This document shows, in pieces, positions 214-46,362 of a stretch of DNA of 53,950 bases. This DNA comes from a virus (lineage: Duplodnaviria; Caudoviricetes). The stretch covers positions 1-53,950 of the IMG/VR virus record IMGVR_UViG_3300047586_000088; one strand, 5' to 3'. The notes under the pieces are model-generated. The model saw nothing but the letters and a program-made list of their open reading frames with translations, did no database searches and was not told where the DNA came from. The stretch's first letter is position 1. The number at the start of each line of letters is the position of its first letter. A program made the translations under genes and the position numbers.

Positions 214-260
214 TGGCTGGCCTCCTGGCGCTGGCTGAACTCGACTGCTCGCCGGGGACG

Positions 261-3171: not shown

Positions 3172-3401
3172 TCGTCGATCGACCAGTCAGCGATTACCCT
3201 GACCTGCACCGCGACTTCGGCTGGGCGCTCGGGATCCACCGCGCTCCCGCCGGCTACCAGCACCACTGGCTTGTGGTAACGAGGGGCGCCACGTTCGGGG
3301 CGTGGACACGGGCAGAGGCTCGCTCGATCTGGTGGCACTCTGAGGATTACCAGTGGCCACTCGCGCCCCAGGCGTCCCGAGAGGAGGGACAAGATGGCTA
3401 G
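3168..3401 (+). CDS. Hypothetical protein (Trp-rich)
   Basis: ATGA overlap; GGAGG RBS within/adjacent to the repeat. Confidence 0.7.
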   Translation: MIVDRPVSDYPDLHRDFGWALGIHRAPAGYQHHWLVVTRGATFGAWTRAEARSIWWHSEDYQWPLAPQASREEGQDG

Positions 3402-3798
3402 CTATCGGTTTGCCAGAGAATACCTTGAAGAGGCCAGGCGAGCACTGCATCTCGCCGCCTCAGAGTTGCTGGCGTTGGAGCAATTCGAGAGCGCCATTCG
3501 GCTCACACAGGCGAGCCAGAACATTGCCGAGATGCGCAATCAGTATGCTAGGGCCGCCAAGGACGAAGGCCCAGAGAAGCCGAACTCTGAGGAGCTAAAC
3601 CTCGGCGACCGCGGCCCCGACGACTCCGGCCAGGCGCCACAGGAGGGCCGCGACTCCTCGGCACGGGCGACGCTCGAGCGAGTGCCCACGCTCATCGATC
3701 CCCTGATCCACCGAGTGGTTGAGGAGATCGACTACTACAGCACGTCTGACGAGGCCCAGGCGCCCCAGGAGAAAGAGAGCGATGCAGCGAACGGTTGA
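3394..3798 (+). CDS. Hypothetical protein with an internal repeat-bounded module shared with gene 35909..36319
   Basis: RBS; ATLERVPTLIDPLIHRVVEEIDYYST module. Confidence 0.75.
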   Translation: MASYRFAREYLEEARRALHLAASELLALEQFESAIRLTQASQNIAEMRNQYARAAKDEGPEKPNSEELNLGDRGPDDSGQAPQEGRDSSARATLERVPTLIDPLIHRVVEEIDYYSTSDEAQAPQEKESDAANG

Positions 3799-3994
3799 CG
3801 ACGCACGTCGCGAATGCATGGAGGAACTCCGAAGGCGAGCCATCCTGCACGAGCGCCAGGGCTGGTTTCATGCGGGCGACGTGCTGGCGAAGGCCAAGGC
3901 CGAGGCCTACCTGGATGCCGTCGAGGTCGTCCAGACGTGCTTCGCTGGCCTCGATCAGGCACCCCAGGAGGGAAGCGATGGCCTCGGGAGTTAA
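3782..3994 (+). CDS. Hypothetical protein
   Basis: ATG 3782 follows a repeat copy; ends near QAPQE. Confidence 0.65.
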   Translation: MQRTVDDARRECMEELRRRAILHERQGWFHAGDVLAKAKAEAYLDAVEVVQTCFAGLDQAPQEGSDGLGS

Positions 3995-4184
3995 CCGTCG
4001 CCCTGTTGTCAAGCGCCCCCCAGTCGTGCTCGTCTGCGAGGCCTGCGGACACGAGGGATGCAAGGCGGACCTGATCGACGATCCCGATTGGTGGGCGATC
4101 ATCACCTGCCCAGCCTGCGGGCACGTCAGGATGATCGGGGCCAAGACCGAGTGGGCGAGAGAGCGGCTGGCGGAAACGCCCTAA
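3978..4184 (+). CDS. Small zinc-ribbon protein
   Basis: CEAC...CPAC; ATG follows the repeat RBS. Confidence 0.7.
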   Translation: MASGVNRRPVVKRPPVVLVCEACGHEGCKADLIDDPDWWAIITCPACGHVRMIGAKTEWARERLAETP

Positions 4185-4194
4185 TGCAAGAGAA

Positions 4195-4225
4195 GCCCGG
4201 CCCGTGCGCCGCACACGAGCCGGGC
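4195..4225. terminator. Hairpin terminator between convergent operons
   Basis: GCCCGGCCCGTG/CACGAGCCGGGC stem; TTCTCTT on the minus strand. Confidence 0.65.
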
Positions 4226-4291
4226 CCCCGAGGAGTACGCAGAGGCTGGGAGGTGGCAGCCCTGCGTCTTGCCGCTCTCCAGCCGCCTGCC

Positions 4292-5755
4292 CTAATACGA
4301 TTCTCGCCAATGCAGTGCGACGATCACGAGGTCCTGGCTGTCGATCACCCCGTCCTGGTTGACATCGGCCCGGATCCAGCCAGGCGGCCCCGTCTCCAGC
4401 CAGTGCGCGTCGACGGCCTCCACGTCGGCCACATCCACGCGGTAGTCGCCGTTCACGTCCCAGGCGGGCGGCGTCGGCGTGGGACTCGGGGTGACTGTTG
4501 GAGTCAGCGTCGGCGTGTTGGTCGGTGTGGGACTCGGAGTATCGGTCGCGGTAGCCGTCGCCGTTGGAGTCGCCGTGTAGGTCGCGGTCGGGCTCGGTGT
4601 CGCGGTCAGCGTCGGCGTGAACGTAGGCGTTGGCGGCGTGGGCACGGTCGTCGGAGCGGGCGTGCTCGTCACCGTGCGGGTCGGGGTCGGAGTAGTCGCC
4701 ACTCGCCAGGTCACGGTGAGCCGAGGGGCGTTGGCCGCTGAGCCCTCGTAACTCGTGACGAACTTGCGTGCCCAGGTACCGCCCGAACCCTTGAGGACGA
4801 GCGAGAGGGCGTTGCCACTCTGCCAGTCGGCGCGGTTGACGACCTCCTGCACGACCGCTGGCATCTCACCCAAACTGTGCCAGGTGCCCGCGAGCCACTG
4901 GGAACCGTCGCTGAACGTCAGGCTCATCGTGCCGAGCGTCCGCTGTGACGGCTTGCTGGTCGTCGAGAACGCAGCACTGTTGCCCGATGCCTCAGCTCGG
5001 AGCACGAGCGATGTCGAGATCCAGCTCGCGGCGGGCTGGTAGACGTCGAGGTGCGCCGAGGTGATGACCGCACCCCGTGGGACTATGACGCCCTGGAACC
5101 TGACGCCCGTGTAGCCTGCCGTCGTCGACGATGCATTGCCAATCCAGACGGTCGAGCCGCCAGCGGTGAACGTCGTACCGTCCTCGTTCACGTCGTCCGC
5201 GCCCGAGGCAACCTGGAACGTGCCGAGCAGATCGCTGCCAGAGGGGGTCGGAGTGGCCGTCGGTAACACGGTCCGTGTCGGCGTGGGCGTCGAGGTGCGG
5301 GTCGCCGTCGGCAGGACGATCGGCGTCGGGGTGAGCGTCGGTATTCGAGCATCCGGGTAGTCGTAGCCGATCACTGAGGCCGTAAACTGCTGGTCCGCTG
5401 AGACGACGACGGTGCCGCTGAACGGACTCGGGATCTGCGCCATGTCGGCGACGTGGTACTGGTTGTTCGAGTTGGGTGGCAGCGAGTCCTCGAACTGGTA
5501 AACGGGATTGCCGCCGGCGTCCTTGAACGTGTGCAGCACGGCCAGCGCCGTCGTGTTGCCGTTGTAGACCGAGTACACGGTCTCCGCCCCAGAACCCGGC
5601 GTCGGCACGGCGTCGATCGCCGCCACGGGCACCACCTGAAAGGCGCGGTCTGGCTGGAACGTTGCCCCCGCGAGGCTCGGTCGGAGCAACAGCGCGAGGG
5701 CAATCAGCAGCGCCACAATCACCAAGGCGAGGACGTGATAGCGGCGGAGGGTCAT
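4292..5755 (-). CDS. Secreted/membrane-anchored protein with Thr-Pro linkers and a C-terminal dockerin-like domain
   Basis: N-terminal hydrophobic signal; PT repeats; [12 protein letters not shown]...[12 protein letters not shown] duplicated EF-hand-like dockerin motif. Confidence 0.85.
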
Positions 5756-6183
5756 AATGGAGGCTCCTGCCCCAGGATTTGATTCGCCTCTTGGACGGCA
5801 TCAGAGACTGTCAGCCGTGCCTCGGGTTCCTCTGGTAGGTTCGTCTCCACCCGACCGTATCGCTGGCGCAGATCCTGAATCTCCGCGTCGAGCGTCAGAG
5901 CCGGTTGCTCCGGGTGCTGCGCCTGAAGCTGCTTCGCCGCGTTGTAGACGAACCGAAGCATATCTGGCGCCTTGTCCGGTGTGGAGCCGCCACTGTTACA
6001 GTGACCCGCCCAGCGCTCAGCCCAAATGACCAGCGCACGAAGGGTCTGCCAGTTGACTCGGACGGCTACATTGTCCTGGATTCGGACGGGAGGGTATCTC
6101 GTTCCACAGTTCGGGCAGGTGCTCAGGCCGTCGAAACTAGCCACCTCGTGATTACAGATCACGCAACGTCCCACGTTAACCAC
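5752..6183 (-). CDS. Hypothetical protein with N-terminal zinc ribbon
   Basis: CVIC...CPNC; GGAGG RBS. Confidence 0.7.
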
Positions 6184-35912: not shown

Positions 35913-36319
35913 TCCTTGGCCTCCTTGCCCTGGTCTCCCTCGTCAGGATCGCCCGTCGAGTAATACTCGACGTCCTCCATGACCTCATGGATGGCGGGGT
36001 CGGTCAGCACGGGCACCCGTGCGAGGGTTGCAGTTGCCGAGGCCTCCTTGCCGTCGAGGGCGGCGAGGGCGGCGTCGAAAACTTCCTGTGCCTCGAACAC
36101 GTGTGAGTCGAGTCGTGCGACTGTTTCCGCCCATTGCGCGTAGGATTGGGCAGACACGTCGTACTCGGGCAACTGGGCTAACTCCCTTTGCGCTCGCTTC
36201 ATATTCCTCGCCGCCACAGCCACCGCTTCGAGGAGTCGCATGCGCTCTCTATCCTGCTTGGCCTTCGCCTCGAAGTCGCGTATCACGTCGCGGAAGGACG
36301 CCGTTTGCCACTCACTCAC
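35909..36319 (-). CDS. Hypothetical coiled-coil protein with repeat-flanked C-terminal module
   Basis: LLEAVAVAAR...ALAALDG; module shared with 3394..3798. Confidence 0.75.
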   Translation of the reverse strand: MSEWQTASFRDVIRDFEAKAKQDRERMRLLEAVAVAARNMKRAQRELAQLPEYDVSAQSYAQWAETVARLDSHVFEAQEVFDAALAALDGKEASATATLARVPVLTDPAIHEVMEDVEYYSTGDPDEGDQGKEAKE

Positions 36320-36801
36320 GGTTGTGCCTCTGTCACTGCGAGATAGACCTGACGGTCTAACTTAACCTTGCCGCTCTTTCGGAACGACCTGCGACGCGCC
36401 GAATCCTGACGATGGCACTCTCTACATCGTCGCCTACCCTTGTTATAGGTCACATTCGAGCCTGACAGTAGATGTCCTTTCGGACAGTGAATATGGAGGC
36501 TTTGCTGATGGCTGATGCTGTTCTCGTGAAGCAAGTAATGCTCAGTTGCCCTTACCAACATAAGGTGATCGGGATTGACGCAGCGGCGATTTTCACAAAA
36601 GTGATGCAGACTATAGCTATCAGGAACCGGCCCGTTAACCCATTCCCAGGCAAGACGGTGAGCATACACGCGCTTCGTGCTGGGGGCATCCGCCTTAATC
36701 TGACCATAGCCATCTGATAATGCGCCAGTCCAAGGCCAACAACCCTCGACCTTGTCCACGTATCGCCAGAACCGTTCCGTCAGAGGTATCACTCTCACCA
36801 T
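36316..36801 (-). CDS. HNH homing endonuclease (HNH_3-like)
   Basis: RFWRYVDK...CWPWTG...AHRLAW...HHFCENRRCVNPDHL; lower GC. Confidence 0.92.
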   Translation of the reverse strand: MVRVIPLTERFWRYVDKVEGCWPWTGALSDGYGQIKADAPSTKRVYAHRLAWEWVNGPVPDSYSLHHFCENRRCVNPDHLMLVRATEHYLLHENSISHQQSLHIHCPKGHLLSGSNVTYNKGRRRCRECHRQDSARRRSFRKSGKVKLDRQVYLAVTEAQP

Positions 36802-37373
36802 TAGGGCTGCGCCTCCTCTCGATATCGCTCGACCATCGCCGTCAGGCGGGCGACCTCGGCACGGAGTGCCTCTGTTTCTGCACAGCGAACACATGCCGTT
36901 GGGCCGCCCGCTACCGGCGTTCCGCAATGGCGACATCGGCGCACGGTCCAACCGTCGTAGAACGTCTCCTCCTGTTCACCGAGTGCAGTCAGCATTTCCT
37001 CCCGCCCCGGCTCCCGCCGTCTCAGGCGGGCGACCTCGGCCTCGGCACGATCGGCACGGGCGCGGGTAGAGTCGCGTTCTGCCCTGAGCGATTCATACCG
37101 TTGTCCCAGGTCGTCGTAACCTCCAATGCAACGATAGAGGCTCGATTGAGTAGGAACGAGCAACCTCCTCGCCTCGTCTCTCTCCCCCTCGACCCTCCTG
37201 AGCGATGCGAGCGCCTGGTCTGCACGCCAGTTGGCGTCGTCTCGCTCTGACTCGACACCACGGAGATCGCCAATCAGACGGAGCGTATCTCTCGCCCCTA
37301 GCAAACAGCCCTTGTGGGCGGCATGCTCGATGATCTCGACCTCCTCGGGCGTCAGAATGCGCGGCTCAGACAT
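36801..37373 (-). CDS. Mosaic coiled-coil protein with zinc ribbon
   Basis: ERDEAR repeats; CRHC...CVRC between 19-bp direct repeats. Confidence 0.7.
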   Translation of the reverse strand: MSEPRILTPEEVEIIEHAAHKGCLLGARDTLRLIGDLRGVESERDDANWRADQALASLRRVEGERDEARRLLVPTQSSLYRCIGGYDDLGQRYESLRAERDSTRARADRAEAEVARLRRREPGREEMLTALGEQEETFYDGWTVRRCRHCGTPVAGGPTACVRCAETEALRAEVARLTAMVERYREEAQP

Positions 37374-37638
37374 GGACAGCCTCCATCGCCATCTCCGCTG
37401 GTCGCTCCACGCCCACAGGCCACCCGACCATATCGTAGAAGGCGCACGCGAACTCATACCCGCCCCTCGCGTTAGCCGCGACGAGCTGGTACACTCGCTC
37501 GGCGTCGGCCTGGTTGTAGCGCTCGCTGATTGCCCAGGTGGCGAGCGCCCGGATCTGGTCCAGCGCCTCCTCTGGCTCGGCGGCCTCGGGCCACCAGTCG
37601 ATAGCCTCGACGATGCGTCTCACGATTCCGATCCTCAC
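37366..37638 (-). CDS. Hypothetical protein
   Basis: Overlapping start and stop in the operon. Confidence 0.65.
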   Translation of the reverse strand: MRIGIVRRIVEAIDWWPEAAEPEEALDQIRALATWAISERYNQADAERVYQLVAANARGGYEFACAFYDMVGWPVGVERPAEMAMEAVHV

Positions 37639-37718
37639 TTCCGCCGCGGCGCGGCATACCGAACCATCAGAACCAGCAGCCCGAAAAGCACCAGGTAGGC
37701 GACTACCTCTCGGACCAT
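37635..37718 (-). CDS. 27-aa single-TM peptide
   Basis: GGAGGGAG RBS; MVREVVAYLVLFGLLVLMVRYAAPRRK. Confidence 0.55.
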   Translation of the reverse strand: MVREVVAYLVLFGLLVLMVRYAAPRRK

Positions 37719-37746
37719 CTCTCCCTCCTCATCCGCCTAAGGCGGA

Positions 37747-37962
37747 TCAGCAGCCAGGCGAGCCCGACGCCCCCATCCTCTTGGCTCTCCTGAGATGCCC
37801 TCGCGCGCGCTCGATCACGATCTCGGGCGGGTCGCCGCGGACGTAGCGGAGCACCCGGACGCCCTTTGCCCGATCGGTCCCCCGAAGGCCCTCGGGCGTG
37901 GACTTCCACTCGACCTCCGGATAGCGATCCCGAGCGATCCGTAACAGCTCGTGGCCGTTCAC
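37747..37962 (-). CDS. Hypothetical protein
   Basis: GTGA overlap with the ASCH gene. Confidence 0.55.
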   Translation of the reverse strand: MNGHELLRIARDRYPEVEWKSTPEGLRGTDRAKGVRVLRYVRGDPPEIVIERARGHLRRAKRMGASGSPGC

Positions 37963-38486
37963 AGTTCCATCCCCTGATCACGGATCCGCTCGACGACATC
38001 ATCGGGCACCACCCAGAGCCCCCGTGCGCCGCTGCGGGGGATCGGCTTCGGCAGTCGCTGGACGTTTTCGAGGAGCCACGCCCATCGGCCTGGGCTGTAA
38101 TCGCCGAAAGCGAAGTCGGCTTGGGGGATCGCGTAGTAACCGCCCTGGTTCCAGCCGTAGGTTGCCAGCTTGGCGTTCAGGTGCGGACAGACGTTGCGGG
38201 TGGGCATGCAGTCGACGAGTTGAGCCACGGCGACGATCGCGCCGAGTGGCAGTTTCGAGTAGTCGGGGTAGAGTGGCGCGAGCGCCTCGCGCATCAACGG
38301 CCCGACCTGTGGATCGTAGTATGTAGCGCTCCCGGAGAACTCGAAGGTCTTGGTCGCGTGGATTGCCAGCAGTCCCCGATAGCCGATCTGCCAGGACCGA
38401 GTCTCAATGCGCTTGGCGCCCACAGCGATCAGGGATGCCCATGGTTGCCACAAACTGATGCCCTTGAGCAAGCAATCGCTTGACAA
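37959..38486 (-). CDS. ASCH domain protein
   Basis: ISLWQPWASLIAVGAKRIETRSW...RGLLAIHA...GARGLW. Confidence 0.92.
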   Translation of the reverse strand: MSSDCLLKGISLWQPWASLIAVGAKRIETRSWQIGYRGLLAIHATKTFEFSGSATYYDPQVGPLMREALAPLYPDYSKLPLGAIVAVAQLVDCMPTRNVCPHLNAKLATYGWNQGGYYAIPQADFAFGDYSPGRWAWLLENVQRLPKPIPRSGARGLWVVPDDVVERIRDQGMEL

Positions 38487-38508
38487 TCCAGCTGCCTCCG
38501 TCTACAAT
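38480..38508 (+). promoter_or_regulatory. Promoter of the LAGLIDADG gene
   Basis: TTGACA-17-TACAAT, near-consensus. Confidence 0.85.
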
Positions 38509-38549
38509 GCGTGTAGTAACGCTGTACCAAGCGCCGAGGATGTACGCCG

Positions 38550-39353
38550 ATGACCGCCGAGCTTGCTTACCTGACTGGGGTTCTCCAAGGTGATGGCTTC
38601 TGCTCCCAGTCTCTCGGACTTCGAGTGAAGGATCGTGACTTCGCCGAAGCATTCGCGGCTGCCGTTACCGCCGCCTTTGGCGTGTCGGCGAAACTTCATC
38701 TGGAAGACGGCCGGTACTGGAAGGTGCGCTCGGGCAACGGGACCGGCCGCTACAACTTCCTTCGGACCTACGAGCCCTCCGAGATCGAGTATGGTGACTG
38801 GCTCCGCGGCTACTTCGACAGCGAGGGAAACGCCCAGCTCCTCCGCCTGCCCCGCGTCTCTGAGAACGCCTACCATCGCCGAGTCGCCTTCTACTCGACC
38901 AATCAGACTACTCTTTGCCAGGCTCAGGGCTACCTTACCGCGCTGGGTATCACGGCCTCGATCGCCCGGCAGACGCTCAGCAGAGGCCACTACGGCAGTC
39001 GGCCTGTCTTCGAGCTCAAGCTGTCTTGCGGCCGGGCCAACTTCGCGCGCTTCGCCGAGGTCGTGGGCACAAGCATCGAGCGCAAGCGGATCGCTCTCGC
39101 AGCCATAGTCGGAACCTACCGCCCTGACGTGGCGGCGCACTGCCGAGCTGCCCAGCTCAAGGGCGCCGCCGCTAAGAACCGGAAGCGGGAAGAGGTGATG
39201 GTCCCCCAGGTCCTCCAGAGCATTCGCGACCTGGTCGCTCGGGGAGTCAAGCCGACAATGGCAAACTGTGCCACCATTCCTCACTACCAATCGATCCGAG
39301 GCACCTACTACCGGCACAGCGACCTGGTCAGGATGGCCAGCGGTCAGTCCTAG
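38550..39353 (+). CDS. Free-standing double-motif LAGLIDADG homing endonuclease, antisense to the operon
   Basis: LAYLTGVLQGDG and WLRGYFDSEG motifs. Confidence 0.92.
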   Translation: MTAELAYLTGVLQGDGFCSQSLGLRVKDRDFAEAFAAAVTAAFGVSAKLHLEDGRYWKVRSGNGTGRYNFLRTYEPSEIEYGDWLRGYFDSEGNAQLLRLPRVSENAYHRRVAFYSTNQTTLCQAQGYLTALGITASIARQTLSRGHYGSRPVFELKLSCGRANFARFAEVVGTSIERKRIALAAIVGTYRPDVAAHCRAAQLKGAAAKNRKREEVMVPQVLQSIRDLVARGVKPTMANCATIPHYQSIRGTYYRHSDLVRMASGQS

Positions 39354-39359
39354 CTCGCT

Positions 39360-39389
39360 CGGCTGCCACAGAGAAAGGCCTCGCAGCAC
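39360..39389 (-). pseudogene. Orphaned original ASCH N-terminus (VLRGLSLWQP)
   Basis: GTG CTG CGA GGC CTT TCT CTG TGG CAG CCG directly after the ParB stop; matches LLKGISLWQP at 38442-38471. Confidence 0.75.
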
Positions 39390-39397
39390 TCGACCGC

Positions 39398-40897
39398 TTA
39401 CAACTTCGGTATCCCGGCGGGCTCGCGGCCGGCCGCCGCCAGAATCTCGGGCGCCCATTCGGCCACCTTCCTCTCGGCCTCGGTCGGAGGCTCTCCCAGA
39501 TACCACTCGCCCGCTCTGAGGTTGACCCTGCCGCTGACGTAGTTGCCAGAGTCGAGCTCCTGATGGCACTCGCCCTGGACGAGTGCCTCGACGACCGCGA
39601 GCAGCAGGTCGCGCGGGTCCAGCTTGGCGTACTCTTCGAGGAGCTTCGTGTTCGTCGTGTAGGTCTCGGGCTTCTTCCACACGTTCTCCGGGATGCCTCT
39701 CGCCTTCAGCGCCGGCGCGATCGCCGAGGCATCGGCGCACGAGAGCGCGTAGCACGCCACGATCGCGGCCTCGCGCGGGCCGATCTCCGTGAGGGGCTTC
39801 GTCGCCGCGGCGAGCGCCTTCGCCATGGCCTGGATAGCCAGCTTCCGTGCCTTGTTCTCAGCCTTGGTCTGCGCCGTCTTCAGCCGCTTGAAGCACTTCG
39901 GGTCCATGCAGAGGGTCGCGGGCCGGCCGTGGAAGAGCACGTGGCTGTAGTTGGGACACGCGGTCAGTTTGCAGCCAGCGGGCGCTCCCCGACTGCTGAG
40001 GTCCTCGTAGGTGCCGTACTCGAGCCTGTCGACGACGGGGAGCGACTCGCCTGAGGCCGAAGTCGACCTCGACTCCGCGATCACCGCGGCGTGGCGCTCG
40101 GCTTCCTCCGCCGCCTTCAGATCGTCGAAGTGGGCGGGTTTCAGGCAGCGGCCCCAATAACCGTCGTGGCCCTGGTTGCTGTAGGCCTGGAAGGGACACT
40201 GCTTGCAGTGCGTCTGCCTGAAGGCATAGCGGCTGTCCACCGTGCGGATCAGCCCTTTCTGCTCCAGGATGTAGGAATACGGGATCTCTTCTGAGTCGAT
40301 TCCCTTCGACGTCAGGTTACTTCTGACCGCCTGCTCGGCGATCGCCGAGCACACCTCGGGGAACTTTGCGAACCGCGCGAGCGAGACCCCGTGCGCCGTC
40401 GAGAGCTCGCCCCGCCGGATCCGCTCCTGGACATCGGCGGGGAGATTCAGCAGCCGGAGCGTGTTGGCGACCAGTGGCTGACTCTTGCCGACGCGGCGCC
40501 CGATCTCCGCCTGCTTCACGCCGAGGTCGGCGAGCTTCTGGAAGGCAAGCGCGACCTCGATAGCGTCGAGGTCCTCGCGGACCAGGTTCTCGACGAGGCC
40601 GAGTTCTTGGGCGGTCCGATCGTCGACGTCGACCACGCGGACGGGCACGGTCGGGAGATTCGCCTGGTAGGCCGCCTTCAGGCGGCGCTCGCCGGCGATG
40701 AGTTGATAGCACGAGCCACCGAGCTTGCGGCGGACGACGAGCGGCTCGAGGATGCCGTGCTCGCGGATCGAGTTCGCGAGCTGGATCAGGGCCTCGAAGT
40801 CCCAGTTGGTGCGCGGGTTGAACCCGGCCACTTCGACGTCGTCGATCGGGACCTCGAGGAGCGTCGCGGTATTCGGCGCCGAATCGACGTCGATCAC
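39398..40897 (-). CDS. parB: ParB/Spo0J-like protein with Cys-rich C-terminus
   Basis: NPR, LANSIREHGILEPLVVR, IAGERRLKA, LVENLVREDL, HTH. Confidence 0.9.
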   Translation of the reverse strand: MIDVDSAPNTATLLEVPIDDVEVAGFNPRTNWDFEALIQLANSIREHGILEPLVVRRKLGGSCYQLIAGERRLKAAYQANLPTVPVRVVDVDDRTAQELGLVENLVREDLDAIEVALAFQKLADLGVKQAEIGRRVGKSQPLVANTLRLLNLPADVQERIRRGELSTAHGVSLARFAKFPEVCSAIAEQAVRSNLTSKGIDSEEIPYSYILEQKGLIRTVDSRYAFRQTHCKQCPFQAYSNQGHDGYWGRCLKPAHFDDLKAAEEAERHAAVIAESRSTSASGESLPVVDRLEYGTYEDLSSRGAPAGCKLTACPNYSHVLFHGRPATLCMDPKCFKRLKTAQTKAENKARKLAIQAMAKALAAATKPLTEIGPREAAIVACYALSCADASAIAPALKARGIPENVWKKPETYTTNTKLLEEYAKLDPRDLLLAVVEALVQGECHQELDSGNYVSGRVNLRAGEWYLGEPPTEAERKVAEWAPEILAAAGREPAGIPKL

Positions 40898-41547
40898 GCT
40901 GTCACCTCCGAGGCCTCGACGACCACGCTGCCCTGGCCGTTCGGATGCTCGCGGTGCCAGCGACGCATCGCGGCATGTCGGCAGTCGTCGGAGCAGTAGA
41001 AGTGCTTGACCCGGAGCGGCTGGAACGTCGTCCCACAGACCTTGCAAGCACGCTCGGGGAGCGTCGCCGCCGCTCGGACCTTCACCCGCTGGCTGAACGG
41101 CTTCGGCTCGCCCGTCGGGGTCAGCAGAGAGAGCTCGTGGTCGAGCTGCGCCCGCGCGTCGCCCATCTGCTGCTTTGCCGTCGCGACCGTGCCCTCGAGA
41201 GCAGTGGCCCTCTCTTGGGCCTCTCGGATCCTCGCGTCGGCGTCGCGGAGCTTCTCGCTCGCCTCCAGGTAGCGGGTCGTCGTGGCGTGGTACGTCTCGA
41301 GCGCCTTCGCCGCCGAACTATCGGGCTTGGGCGTAGCTATGGGTCGCGTAGCTCTCAGATCGCCGTTGACTGACGTCTTGGTGTCGTTCACCTTTCCCTC
41401 CTCTATGACAGGACTAGTCTTATGCGGTGCCGGCTGCACTCGCCTGCACTGAAAGCAGATGGCAACGTATCGCCGGAGGTCGTCGTCCCATTCGAGGACG
41501 GTGTTGTGGCCGCAGTGGTAGCAGGCACCGACGATCGCCGCGACCAT
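40894..41547 (-). CDS. Zinc-finger/coiled-coil hypothetical protein
   Basis: CYHC...CFQC; CKVC...YCSDDC. Confidence 0.7.
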   Translation of the reverse strand: MVAAIVGACYHCGHNTVLEWDDDLRRYVAICFQCRRVQPAPHKTSPVIEEGKVNDTKTSVNGDLRATRPIATPKPDSSAAKALETYHATTTRYLEASEKLRDADARIREAQERATALEGTVATAKQQMGDARAQLDHELSLLTPTGEPKPFSQRVKVRAAATLPERACKVCGTTFQPLRVKHFYCSDDCRHAAMRRWHREHPNGQGSVVVEASEVTA

Positions 41548-43593: not shown

Positions 43594-43778
43594 CAGCGCG
43601 CCACCTCCGCCAGCCCGGGCAGCGGGGTCGCCCCGAGCCTTCGGAGCACCAGGTCGACGGGGAGCCGCTCCTTCCGCTTGCAGCCGGGGCGAGTGCAAAT
43701 CAGGTACTCACCCCACCCGTTCGCCCGGATCTCCAGGATCGCGCCGCAAGCTGGGCACCCCTTCGTGATGTTGCTCAT
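43593..43778 (-). CDS. Topoisomerase C4 zinc-finger-like small protein
   Basis: CPACG...YLICTRPGC. Confidence 0.65.
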   Translation of the reverse strand: MSNITKGCPACGAILEIRANGWGEYLICTRPGCKRKERLPVDLVLRRLGATPLPGLAEVAR

Positions 43779-44365
43779 GCGCTCACCTTCTCCCGCCAGG
43801 TCATACCCTGGACGACGAACTGGATAGCGCGCTTCGAGACACCGTAGAGGCCGGCCAGGGCCATCAGGGTCTCGCCTTCTCGCCGACGCTCCCGGATCTC
43901 GCGGACCTTCGCCCAGGTCAGCTTCGCCCAGCCGTTCAGCTCACCACGCCTGCGCTGCTCGGGGTGCGTGTAGGCGCCGTTCAGTTCGCCCCAGGCGGCT
44001 TTTTCCGGATGGAGGTGCGGCCAAGCCTGATCGCCTCTCGGCAGGCGCCCCTTGGCGATGCAGTCCCGCATGTTGTCCAGGCCAGTGCCAAGGAAAAGGT
44101 GAGCAGGGTTGACGCAGCGACGGTAGGAGATATCGCCCACTGAGTAGCTCGCGTCACAGTTGTGGCAGACCATCATGCCCTCTGGGATCGGGCCAACGAA
44201 CAGCTCATAGGCAAGGCGATGCGCCAGCACCCCACCGCCTGGCCCTTTGTGCAGGTGCATCCGGCAGTAGCCGTTGGGGTAGGGCTTGCCGCGCCAGAGC
44301 CAACAGGAATCGGTCTTGTCGACGCGAGCCAGGAATCGCTCGGTCAGGGTTAGATCTCGGGACAT
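43775..44365 (-). CDS. HNH homing endonuclease with C-terminal HTH
   Basis: RFLARVDKTDSCWLW...AHRLAY...CHNCD...CVNPAHLFLGT..DN. Confidence 0.92.
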   Translation of the reverse strand: MSRDLTLTERFLARVDKTDSCWLWRGKPYPNGYCRMHLHKGPGGGVLAHRLAYELFVGPIPEGMMVCHNCDASYSVGDISYRRCVNPAHLFLGTGLDNMRDCIAKGRLPRGDQAWPHLHPEKAAWGELNGAYTHPEQRRRGELNGWAKLTWAKVREIRERRREGETLMALAGLYGVSKRAIQFVVQGMTWREKVSA

Positions 44366-44401
44366 AGCAGAAACCCCCGCATCGAATCCGTTGCCAGCAC
44401 C

Positions 44402-44533
44402 GCCTACCACAGCAGAGCGGGATACGGAACGACGCGAAGGTTCTGCACACTCCCCAAAGGGAGCGTCCATAGGGCGCGTGTGCTGGCATTCTGCCCTAGA
44501 AATGCAGAATCCCGCTAGACTGCCGTGGTAGGC
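44402..44533 (-). ncRNA. Predicted multibranch structured RNA leader upstream of the HNH gene
   Basis: GCCTACCACGGCAG..AGCGGGAT pairs with ATCCCGCT.CTGCTGTGGTAGGC; internal hairpins; starts just after a promoter. Confidence 0.55.
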
Positions 44534-44539
44534 ACCCTT

Positions 44540-44568
44540 AGAGTAGCACTCTGACAGGCGGGTGTCAA
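44540..44568 (-). promoter_or_regulatory. Internal promoter for the RNA/HNH cassette
   Basis: TTGACA-17-TACTCT with an extended TG. Confidence 0.75.
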
Positions 44569-46362
44569 TCATCTCAGCACCATCTGGGCGATGTGGTGTG
44601 TCGTGACTTGAGCTGCCTGCCCCTTGGTCATGCCGTCCCGCCAGATGCCCCAGCGGGCGAGGAGCCTTCGCTGCTTGTCGGTCGCCGGCTCGCGCCGCCA
44701 GCCGCGCTTGCGTTGTGCCAGCACGCCGTCCGCGTGCTCGTCCGCCCACTCCTCGGCGACCTCGGAGGCCTGCTCCCAGGTCGGAGCGAGGCCAAGCAGC
44801 GCTCCCTCGTGCTCCTCGACGACGTAGACTCGGAAGCTCCTCACTTCCTGGTAGGTCCGCTCCCAGCGGGGCTCCCAGCGGCCCGAGGCCCGCAGCGCGT
44901 CCGCCTTCGCGACACGCTCCGCGTCGGGGAGTCGGACCGCGAGGATATGGCGCTCGCCCGCCGAGGCCGAGGCGAGCTTGCCGTCGAACGTCCAGGCGAG
45001 CCGGTGATTCGAGAGGTAGTCGAGGACCGCGAGCTGGACCGCGTCCGGGTCGGCGTCGATCCCTGAGCCGTCGGAGCGGATCCCGAAGGAGTCCAGCACC
45101 ACGCCGGCGGCCTTCGCCCGCTCCTCCGCCTTGCGCTGCTTCCGCGGCTTGCCGAGGAGGTCGCCGGCCATCCGGAGGTCCCGGGCGTCCTCGGGGACCA
45201 TGTCCATCAGCAGCAGCTCGGTCTTCCCGGGGTAGAGCCGGAGGCCTCGGCCGGCCATCTGCACGTAGACCAGATCGCTCTTGGTAGGCTTGATCTGGAG
45301 GATGCAGGAGGCCATCGGGAGGTCGAGGCCCTCGGTCCAGAGCTGGGCGTTGGCGATGATCCTGGTCCGACCTTCCCGGAAGCGCTGGAGGATCCCCCGC
45401 CGGTCGTCTCTGTCGGTCTCGCCGTCGGCCGCCTCGGCCGCCACTCCTGCCCGGCGGAAGGCCTCGGCGAGCGAGTAAGCCTGGGCGACGCTCGCCGTGA
45501 AGGCGATGGTCGGCCGGCTCTCGGCGTGCTTCTTCCAGGTCTCGACGATCACCGTCTCGGCGTTGTCGGCTGACAGCACTCGGCCGGCCGACTCGTCCTC
45601 CCAACCGTTCTCGCCGGTCTCGGGGACGCCGGCGAAGCTGACCGGGAGCTGGACGGCAACCGCGACGAACGGGCAGAGCGCTCCAGCCCTGATCGCGTCG
45701 CGGATCGAGATCCGGTAGGCGACCGACTTGAATACCCGCGAGAGCCCGTCGCCGTCGGTCCGCTTGGGCGTCGCCGTGATGCCGAGGAGCCGGAGATCCG
45801 GGTTGTGCGCGCGAAGGCGCTTCGCCAGGTCGAGGTTCGTCCTCGCCGGAAGGTGATGGACTTCGTCCCAGATGACGTGGCTGATCCGGCCGTGGGCGAA
45901 GATCCGGGCGAGCCTGGCCGGGTTGGCGAGCGTCTGGACGGTGGCGGCGATGATCCGAGCGTCGGAGTCGTCGCGACTCGCCTGGACGATCCCGGCGGGC
46001 GCGAGGTCCGGCCAGCTCCGCTCGATCCTCTCGACCGGTTGATCGACGAGCTCAGTTCTGTGTGCCAGCCAGAGGCAGCGCTCCAGCCTTCCGGCCTCGT
46101 GCTCGGCCTGGAGCACGCCGAAGCCGAGCTCCGACTTGCCTGTGCCGGTCGCGGCAGCGACTAGAGTGGCCAGATGTCCGGCCGCCCATTCTCGAAGCAC
46201 CGCGTCTCTGGCCTCGCGCTGGTAGGGGCGGAGAGTGATCCGAGGTTCTGCCGGGTGGTCTTCATGCAGGGCGAAGAGGTTGCCGGATCCGGCTAAGGGT
46301 TGGTTAGCCGGCCCGTTGAGGGGTTGTTCCCGGTCGTGTACATGATTAATCATGATGGTCAC
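44569..46362 (-). CDS. SF2 DEAD/DEAH (ResIII-like) helicase
   Basis: LRPYQ, ATGTGKS, DEVHH, TATP, TEGLDLP, QMAGRGLR. Confidence 0.93.
   Translation of the reverse strand: MTIMINHVHDREQPLNGPANQPLAGSGNLFALHEDHPAEPRITLRPYQREARDAVLREWAAGHLATLVAAATGTGKSELGFGVLQAEHEAGRLERCLWLAHRTELVDQPVERIERSWPDLAPAGIVQASRDDSDARIIAATVQTLANPARLARIFAHGRISHVIWDEVHHLPARTNLDLAKRLRAHNPDLRLLGITATPKRTDGDGLSRVFKSVAYRISIRDAIRAGALCPFVAVAVQLPVSFAGVPETGENGWEDESAGRVLSADNAETVIVETWKKHAESRPTIAFTASVAQAYSLAEAFRRAGVAAEAADGETDRDDRRGILQRFREGRTRIIANAQLWTEGLDLPMASCILQIKPTKSDLVYVQMAGRGLRLYPGKTELLLMDMVPEDARDLRMAGDLLGKPRKQRKAEERAKAAGVVLDSFGIRSDGSGIDADPDAVQLAVLDYLSNHRLAWTFDGKLASASAGERHILAVRLPDAERVAKADALRASGRWEPRWERTYQEVRSFRVYVVEEHEGALLGLAPTWEQASEVAEEWADEHADGVLAQRKRGWRREPATDKQRRLLARWGIWRDGMTKGQAAQVTTHHIAQMVLR

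Follow-up and report, generated by a model that had tools for sequence, protein, structure and literature searches.

We examined a 53,950-nucleotide stretch of a Caudoviricetes genome (IMG/VR record IMGVR_UViG_3300047586_000088, positions 1 to 53,950; hereafter "the window"), in which a ParB-like gene, an antisense LAGLIDADG endonuclease gene and an ASCH gene lie next to one another, with the start of the ASCH gene present twice. The features of this locus are as follows.

39398..41047, minus strand: ParB-like gene, upstream of the disrupted ASCH start and its native operon partner, with its TAA stop at 39400-39398
39360..39389, minus strand: remnant of the native ASCH N-terminus (10 codons, VLRGLSLWQP, GTG start), beginning eight bases after the ParB stop
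38550..39353, plus strand: free-standing two-motif LAGLIDADG homing endonuclease gene (267 aa), antisense to the operon, its stop six bases from the remnant
38502..39389, minus strand: stop-free "bridging" frame from the remnant GTG through the antisense of the endonuclease to the TAG at 38504-38502, 15 nt before TTG 38486
38507..38536, plus strand: third, decayed ASCH-like N-terminus (MRVVTLYQAP), directly upstream of the endonuclease start and out of frame with it
38480..38508, plus strand: sigma-70-type promoter for the endonuclease (TTGACA, 17 nt, TACAAT), overlapping the new ASCH start region
38495..38499, minus strand: GGAGG ribosome-binding site for the new ASCH start, inside the spacer of the opposing promoter
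38442..38471, minus strand: cassette-borne replacement N-terminus (LLKGISLWQP), continuous with the ASCH body
37959..38486, minus strand: intact ASCH-fold gene (fold predicted), starting at TTG 38486 or TTG 38471

Gene content and predicted folds at the locus

The ParB assignment was supported by Pfam matches to ParB_N (5.9e-24) and HTH_ParB (9.4e-20). The endonuclease matched Pfam LAGLIDADG_3 (1.5e-10, 41.6 bits against a cut-off of 22.5), had no PHROG match, and carried both LAGLIDADG motifs, LAYLTGVLQGDG and WLRGYFDSEGN, with D15 invariant and E92 at least 90% conserved in 26 sequences. Structurally, its AlphaFold model (pLDDT 96.2) showed the twice-repeated alpha-beta-beta-alpha-beta-beta-alpha fold, and the top Foldseek matches were the solved monomeric enzymes PI-PfuI (endonuclease domain), I-Tsp061I and I-DmoI (E about 1e-7, probability 1.00; TM normalised to target 0.62-0.69 for I-DmoI and I-Tsp061I). 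Sequence identity to these intron- or intein-encoded enzymes was only 14-18%, and the family described here has an extra C-terminal helical region (about residues 194-267), which is absent from the short, about 224-aa Streptomyces members. The ASCH gene matched PHROG 3193 (1.1e-36) and had 1308 homologues at E<=1e-10, but its Pfam ASCH (PF04266) hit was just under threshold (20.6 against 21.2 bits); of seven relatives, one scored above the cut-off, four just below, and two had no hit, although some database relatives carry precomputed PF04266 hits and the name "activating signal cointegrator 1". The ASCH assignment rests on the predicted fold (model pLDDT 94.8), for which Foldseek returned the TRIP4 ASCH domain (E 7e-11, TM 0.62-0.77) and Zymomonas ASCH (E 6e-5).

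The two ASCH starts share 7/10 amino acids but only 18/30 nucleotides, and five of the seven identical residues use different codons, including Ser TCT against AGT. In all six frames of the window, the remnant is the only other 10-mer with at least 7/10 identity to the new start, and none of 200 mononucleotide shuffles gave such a match. The promoter matched 11 of 12 consensus positions and was the only promoter-like site in 37800-39600, against a mean of 0.2 in shuffles. The first-pass annotation had placed the new start at TTG 38471, which is also used by the public gene call (170 aa, P0030); however, the GGAGG lies 8 nt from TTG 38486 and 23 nt from TTG 38471, making 38486 (MSSDCLLKG...) the better-spaced start. 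That annotation had also not included the third ASCH-like start (within ORF 38480..38593), which is probably a fossil of an earlier in-frame remnant-endonuclease fusion.

Recurrence of the cassette in other lineages

To assess whether this arrangement recurs, we collected 50 loci carrying the endonuclease (L-numbers below designate individual loci), of which nine (L043-L051, 25-34% identity) belonged to a different LAGLIDADG family and were set aside as an outgroup. The other 41 loci plus the window fell into 20 lineages by our grouping, and an HMM search found an ASCH gene adjoining the endonuclease (39-52% identity to that of the window) in 16 of the 20. A duplicated ASCH N-terminus was visible in 13, the old copy ending at or just before the boundary between QP and W. 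Five of these 13 are antisense (window, L005, L015, L020, L025), whereas the commoner sense form, in which the old start is fused in frame to the endonuclease, accounts for eight (L008, L032, L038, L035, L036, L033, L037, L040). Of the remainder, three lineages with an adjacent ASCH show no clear remnant (L007, L019, L031), one is only weak (L029/L030), and one has no ASCH at all and a GDG-to-GNG change (L026). The junction between remnant and cassette is not at one fixed base, falling after T (L015, L025), after Q (L020, L033) or after P (most), and the endonuclease tree did not resolve how often orientation changed. By our reading, 18 of 28 non-self database homologues also begin with an in-frame ASCH-like N-terminus. 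The remnants are complete natural N-termini, with QP at offset 7 in 87 of the 120 best ASCH homologues.

In 5 of 11 sense loci, a TGATG stop/start overlap joins the endonuclease to the new ASCH gene, with a GGAGG-like site in the last endonuclease codons. A promoter on the endonuclease strand occurred in 5 of 7 loci scanned, with equivalents of the window promoter in L005, L020, L025 and L007 and none found in L015 or L019. Copies equivalent to the third ASCH-like start lie upstream of the endonuclease in L025 (in frame), L005, L020 and L015.

Evolutionarily, the replacement start is best read as a diverged foreign allele that travels with the cassette, rather than as the "synonymously recoded" start proposed in the first-pass annotation. 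The remnant matches the nearest uninterrupted ASCH homologue (P0031) at 9/10 and the new start matches it at 7/10, although this is one comparison over 10 residues. Over 11 remnant/new-start pairs, 62 of 96 codons keep the residue and 38 of those 62 are recoded, with Ser TCN/AGY switches in three lineages. Codon evidence from Streptomyces agrees: there the remnant uses native-like codons, whereas the cassette copies use Leu CTA, a codon seen in 0 of the 12 endonuclease-free Streptomyces ASCH starts that our pattern found among 13 fetched.

A proposed splicing-free homing strategy

Together, these comparisons support the core of the initial interpretation, namely an intron-free and intein-free endonuclease cassette that enters a conserved ASCH coding motif and supplies a replacement N-terminus, and we hold this reading with good confidence, though enzyme activity, cleavage, immunity and homing are inferred. 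Functionally, we posit that during co-infection the enzyme cuts endonuclease-free ASCH alleles near the conserved boundary ([W/R/T]-Q-P followed by W-A), and that the break is repaired from the endonuclease-carrying genome, with the ASCH body serving as the right homology arm and the upstream gene plus the first about nine codons as the left. The copied cassette would consist of the endonuclease gene plus a diverged, donor-derived ASCH N-terminus with its own start and ribosome-binding site, while the recipient's own first codons stay behind as a remnant and ASCH remains intact without RNA or protein splicing. The occupied allele is presumably immune, since the site is split and the cassette copy differs at synonymous positions; removal of the element's own cut site, as the first-pass annotation suggested, is likewise an inference. 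Family sizes fit a selfish element, with 29 endonuclease clusters at E<=1e-5 against the 1308 ASCH proteins. No endonuclease-free relative of this phage with the same flanks was found, as there was no blastn match in GenBank phages and no ParB relative in viral contigs, and a second peat sample (X2) holds the same occupied allele.

Alternatively, the endonuclease may have been mobile once but now be inactive or domesticated in this phage, with the arrangement simply inherited. The identical occupied allele in two peat samples with no empty allele seen would fit this, as would clear decay in some relatives (an internal stop in L031, GNG in place of GDG in L026, and a truncated remnant in L025). 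However, the ORF in the window is intact, both motifs and their acidic residues are conserved, the model is of high confidence, and a near-consensus promoter is retained, so that we regard this possibility as unlikely. Less likely still is a target-site or slippage duplication that later drifted. The two copies are direct repeats flanking the insert, as target-site duplications are, but the repeats are 24-30 nt long and only 33-75% identical in nucleotides while 62 of 96 residues are kept, which implies that both copies diverged under selection as working ASCH starts. The closer match of the remnant to P0031 and the systematic codon differences in Streptomyces also argue against it, and LAGLIDADG enzymes leave 4-nt overhangs rather than 30-nt staggered cuts.

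A group I intron or intein, with ASCH restored by splicing of the remnant to WASL, is very improbable, even though LAGLIDADG genes are usually borne by such elements and the in-frame remnant of the sense form may recall many mitochondrial intron ORFs. No Rfam family matched at E<=1 in 37500-40000, and none at gathering score in nine related loci; the cassette leaves only 6 nt on one side and about 60 nt on the other, too little for a ribozyme core. The endonuclease of the window is on the opposite strand, a stop separates endonuclease and ASCH in the sense form (these two features, rather than a search for splicing blocks, weighing against an intein), and a complete second N-terminus with a start and ribosome-binding site would be superfluous. 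Finally, although high-GC DNA has long spurious ORFs and the remnant frame is open for 451 codons, the shuffles and the position of the match exactly between the ParB and endonuclease stops argue against chance similarity, which is refuted by recurrence in 12 further lineages, some at 39-47% GC.

Relation to known elements and a possible translational bridge

The strategy is not without precedent. In the mobile-ORF (mORF) gene hybrids of fungal mitochondria, such as Allomyces macrogynus atp6 and Glomus sp. atp6, atp9, cox2 and nad3 (PMC3630166, which cites the 1994 Allomyces work), a LAGLIDADG or GIY-YIG endonuclease ORF sits inside a coding sequence without an intron and carries a diverged foreign copy of the gene terminus, and the native terminus stays behind as an unexpressed duplicate that resembles close relatives more than the inserted copy does. 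Partial C-terminal duplications of cob and atp6 next to endonuclease ORFs have also been described (PMC6279837). There the C-terminus is replaced and no new start signals are needed, whereas here, in phages and prophages, the N-terminus is replaced, so the cassette must supply a start codon, a ribosome-binding site and, in the antisense form, a promoter, and the old start is reused to translate the endonuclease (sense form) or to open a stop-free frame across it (antisense form). Free-standing phage endonucleases such as T4 SegF/SegG and MobE likewise appear to spread without an intron or intein, by double-strand-break repair with co-conversion of flanking markers, but seem to lie between genes and cut a neighbouring gene, without a duplicated gene terminus. 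Where mobE appears to split nrdA in Aeromonas phage Aeh1, function is probably likewise retained without splicing, but through two polypeptides that reassemble, whereas here the short N-terminal piece is discarded and replaced by a carried copy. Carrying a spare gene start would be a third general way, besides introns and inteins, for a homing endonuclease to live inside a conserved coding sequence of a phage, and the target of this small family may be legible directly from the remnants.

What appears to be new is that antisense cassettes keep the complementary frame free of stops. In the window, the bridging frame has 0 stops, against 18 and 10 in the other two antisense frames, and the same arrangement occurs in L005, L015 and L020, which suggests that ribosomes read across the element. 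Tentatively, selection may purge TTA, CTA and TCA codons from the endonuclease gene, such that ribosomes starting at the old ASCH start, still coupled to the upstream gene's stop, could translate across the selfish element and terminate at or next to the new ASCH start. Such a bridge would protect the operon from Rho-type polarity and feed re-initiation, making the insertion phenotypically silent without any splicing, and, if functional, would be a new kind of constraint on a selfish gene, imposed by the host operon's need to stay translated. In practice, such remnants and fused starts will mislead gene callers, as the endonuclease ORFs are annotated with ASCH N-termini and long antisense ORFs appear.

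Anatomy of the cassette and predicted identity of its genes

The virus record is complete, 53,950 bp long with direct terminal repeats and about 66% G+C, and occurs in two peat metagenomes. The region between its ParB-like gene and its ASCH gene, together with two neighboring ORFs with HNH_3 matches, contains the following features.

41047..39398, minus strand: ParB-like gene, ending with TAA.
39389-39360, minus strand: remnant start, eight bases after that stop, with GTG and nine further codons that read VLRGLSLWQP.
38550..39353, plus strand: LAGLIDADG_3 protein of 267 aa, the reverse complement of whose stop lies six bases beyond the remnant.
38507-38536, plus strand: further, decayed ASCH-like N-terminus, out of frame and overlapped by the -10 box.
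38480..38508, plus strand: promoter-like sequence TTGACA-17-TACAAT (11 of 12 matches).
38499-38495, minus strand: GGAGG.
38486..37959, minus strand: 175-aa ORF opened by TTG 38486, eight bases after GGAGG, in which residues 6-15 are LLKGISLWQP, followed by WASLIAVGAK.
36316-36951, minus strand: second homing-endonuclease-like gene about 1 kb downstream of ASCH (Pfam HNH_3 4.2e-14), in a local G+C dip to 0.49-0.54.
43775-45604, minus strand: 609-aa ORF with an HNH_3 domain near its C-terminus (residues 460-513, 1e-8), which may be an endonuclease fused to or inserted in a larger gene.

The two ten-residue stretches share seven residues but only 18 of 30 bases, and five of the seven shared residues use different codons, including a TCT/AGT serine pair. 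In six-frame translation of the whole window no other 10-mer reached 7/10, and none did in 200 shuffles. The duplicated ASCH start reported in the first-pass annotation is therefore confirmed, and its interpretation, a splicing-free element that enters a conserved coding motif and carries a replacement gene start, is supported.

The endonuclease has both LAGLIDADG helices with their acidic residues. A search of PDB with the endonuclease sequence profile gave only a weak hit (2dch, E 0.042), but the AlphaFold model (pLDDT 96.2) best matched the PI-PfuI endonuclease domain, I-Tsp061I and I-DmoI, at E about 1e-7 and probability 1.00. The downstream gene scores just under the Pfam ASCH threshold, but its model (pLDDT 94.8) matches the TRIP4 ASCH domain at E 7e-11, and also bacterial ASCH, and it has 1308 relatives at E<=1e-10. 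In 87 of the 120 best relatives the QP of the motif lies at offset 7, as in M-K-A-L-S-L-[W/T]-Q-P-W-A, and the remnant is therefore a complete natural ASCH N-terminus, start codon included.

Recurrence of the arrangement among related loci

Searching viral, genome and metagenome contigs with the endonuclease returned 50 loci, of which nine (L043-L051, 25-34% identity, with a different N-terminal domain) belong to another LAGLIDADG family and were used only as outgroup. The remaining 41 loci plus the window form 20 lineages by our grouping, in which identical or near-identical endonucleases were merged, although the close relatives L008, L032 and L038 were kept apart. An HMM built from the neighboring ASCH genes found an ASCH gene next to the endonuclease in 16 of the 20; the four without one are L026, which has full flanks, no ASCH, and GNG in place of the first catalytic GDG, and L039, L040 and L041, whose contigs end inside the endonuclease. 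L026 (2495-3286) and L031 (345-1145), whose endonuclease has an internal stop, are decaying family members.

A duplicated ASCH N-terminus is visible in 13 lineages, and takes two forms. In the sense form, found in eight lineages (L008, L032, L038, L035, L036, L033, L037 and L040), the endonuclease lies on the ASCH strand and the old N-terminus is fused in frame to the first LAGLIDADG helix, for example MKALTIRQP followed by HAYLAGV, with a second complete ASCH start following the endonuclease. In 5 of 11 sense loci the stop and start overlap as TGATG, with a GGAGG-like site encoded by the last endonuclease codons, and in three further loci the ASCH ATG lies 10-17 nt before the endonuclease stop. 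In L035 (1465-1500; also L042), endonuclease and ASCH are in the same frame, separated by a single TAA, and no ATG, GTG or TTG lies before the WQPW motif (the sequence reads TAA GCC ATT AAA...), such that ASCH may start at ATT or depend on read-through. The sense form also occurs in Streptomyces chromosomes (L008/L021 and the database homologue P0023), in a contig of Streptomyces sp. MMG1533 and a 7.4-Mb record of Streptomyces sp. NBC_00441, presumably as prophages. In the antisense form, found in five lineages (the window, the L005 group, the L015 group, L020 and L025), the old N-terminus abuts the endonuclease stop codon. No clear remnant was seen in three lineages with an adjacent ASCH (L007, L019 and L031), and L029/L030 show only a weak one. 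Independently, 18 of 28 non-self homologues in the protein database begin, by our reading, with an ASCH-like N-terminus. The endonuclease family is small, at 29 clusters, which is the sporadic distribution expected of a homing element among more than 1300 potential host genes.

We found no endonuclease-free relative of this particular phage in the collections searched: blastn of 37700-39800 against GenBank phages gave no match, ParB against viral contigs gave no relative, and the only ASCH relative in viral contigs (L001, 44% identity) is uninterrupted but is not a relative of this phage. Of two DNA runs of peat metagenomes, one may be the source of the window, and the other contains identical fragments, including one across the remnant/endonuclease junction (39294-39486); no joint that skips the cassette was seen in these runs, which do not bear on empty alleles elsewhere.

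On this evidence the element is very unlikely to be an intron or an intein. No Rfam model matched the window region at E<=1, and none matched nine related loci at gathering score. The non-coding space in the cassette is 6 nt plus about 60 nt, the endonuclease of the window is on the other strand, and a full second N-terminus with its own start signals would be pointless if splicing occurred.

Origin of the second ASCH start and inferred mechanism

Over 11 remnant/new-start pairs, 62 of 96 aligned codons keep the residue, and 38 of those 62 use a different codon, with TCN/AGY serine switches in the window, L020 and L033. Synonymous change is thus near saturation while the protein sequence is retained, which implies that both copies diverged while each served as a working ASCH start, in different genomes. 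Two further observations agree. First, the remnant of the window matches the N-terminus of the closest uninterrupted ASCH homologue (P0031, 65% identity overall) at 9/10, and the cassette copy matches it at 7/10. Second, in Streptomyces, the remnant of L008/L021 uses CTG ACC at codons 4-5, and the cassette copies of L008, L032 and L038 use CTA ACG; among 13 endonuclease-free Streptomyces ASCH genes fetched, 12 starts were located by pattern and none of the 12 uses CTA there. Thus, the new start, described in the first-pass annotation as synonymously recoded, is best read as a donor allele that travels with the endonuclease.

The closest known case shows the same pattern, with mobile endonuclease ORFs of fungal mitochondria carrying a foreign C-terminus of atp6, atp9, cox2 or nad3 and leaving the native one behind (PMC3630166; PMC6279837). 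What differs here is that an endonuclease family specialized on one phage gene uses an N-terminal version of this principle. In the full-text literature searched, which does not extend to subscription journals, no paper was found that combined LAGLIDADG with the ASCH domain, gene hybrids or mobile ORFs together with bacteriophages led only to the two Glomus papers, and the passages on duplication and truncation in PMC10448857 concern endonuclease DNA-binding repeats rather than host gene termini.

From the anatomy, and from what is established for LAGLIDADG homing, we infer that the enzyme cuts uninterrupted ASCH alleles near QP|W, that repair copies the cassette from the occupied genome, with the ASCH body as the right arm and the upstream gene plus the first codons as the left arm, and that the recipient’s own start remains as the remnant. 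The junction is not at one base, falling after T in L015 and L025, after Q in L020 and L033, and after P elsewhere, and the cut site therefore cannot be read off exactly. The divergence between the copies would also make the occupied allele resistant to cutting, and would reduce deletion by recombination between the repeats, although both points are inference.

Stop-free frames and a third ASCH-like N-terminus in antisense cassettes

In the window, the frame opened by the remnant GTG runs without a stop through the whole antisense endonuclease gene to TAG 38504-38502, 15 nt before TTG 38486, although at 63% G+C this alone is weak evidence (expected 2.7 stop-making codons, P about 0.06). The same frame is open in three other antisense lineages, L005 (endonuclease 40% G+C, 307 codons open), L020 (endonuclease 39% G+C, 315 codons open) and L015, in all three of which it ends at a TAA 10 nt inside the new ASCH ORF. 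These endonuclease genes contain no TTA, CTA or TCA codon at all, where 8.9 and 8.4 such codons were expected from flanking genes (P 3e-5 and 4e-5); using the codon usage of the sister genes L025 and L026, which have 12 and 11 such codons at the same G+C, the values are P 2e-6 and 7e-5. The other two antisense frames carry 8-29 stops. By lineage, 4 of 5 antisense cassettes have a stop-free frame, against 1 of 8 sense cassettes (Fisher p = 0.03). The antisense exception, L025, has a truncated, frame-shifted remnant. The sense exception, L007, lies antisense to its surrounding operon, a reclassification that is post hoc: its endonuclease-ASCH module (3253-5845) sits inside a terminase/ParB-like operon, and minus-strand frames stay open across almost the whole module, with one ORF ending at 4907 and the next running 4867..3821 and stopping 8 nt before the small-terminase-like ATG at 3813.

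The remnant start is still coupled to the upstream gene, with an overlap of GTGA in L015 and ATGA in L020, and an 8-nt gap in the window. We posit, tentatively and as a reading about as likely as not, that ribosomes of the operon translate across the element, which avoids polarity and feeds re-initiation at the new start. This would be a possibly new constraint on such elements; nothing on it was found in the partial literature that we could search.

All five antisense cassettes carry a further ASCH-like N-terminus on the endonuclease strand, immediately before the endonuclease start and head-to-head with the new ASCH start. It is clear in L025 (about 236-259, plus strand), where it is in frame, decayed in the window, L005 and L020, and short in L015. 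This suggests that the antisense form descends from the in-frame sense fusion, and is our only argument that the sense fusion came first: the backbone of the endonuclease tree is unresolved and could not show which form is ancestral or how often orientation changed, and neither simple inversion nor inverted capture at the break gave a scheme that yields the internal copy and the new start. In three antisense lineages (L005 3929, L020 2423 and L025 209), the -35 box of the endonuclease promoter begins exactly at the base complementary to the A of the new ASCH ATG, and the ASCH ribosome-binding site lies inside the promoter spacer, giving a very compact divergent control region.
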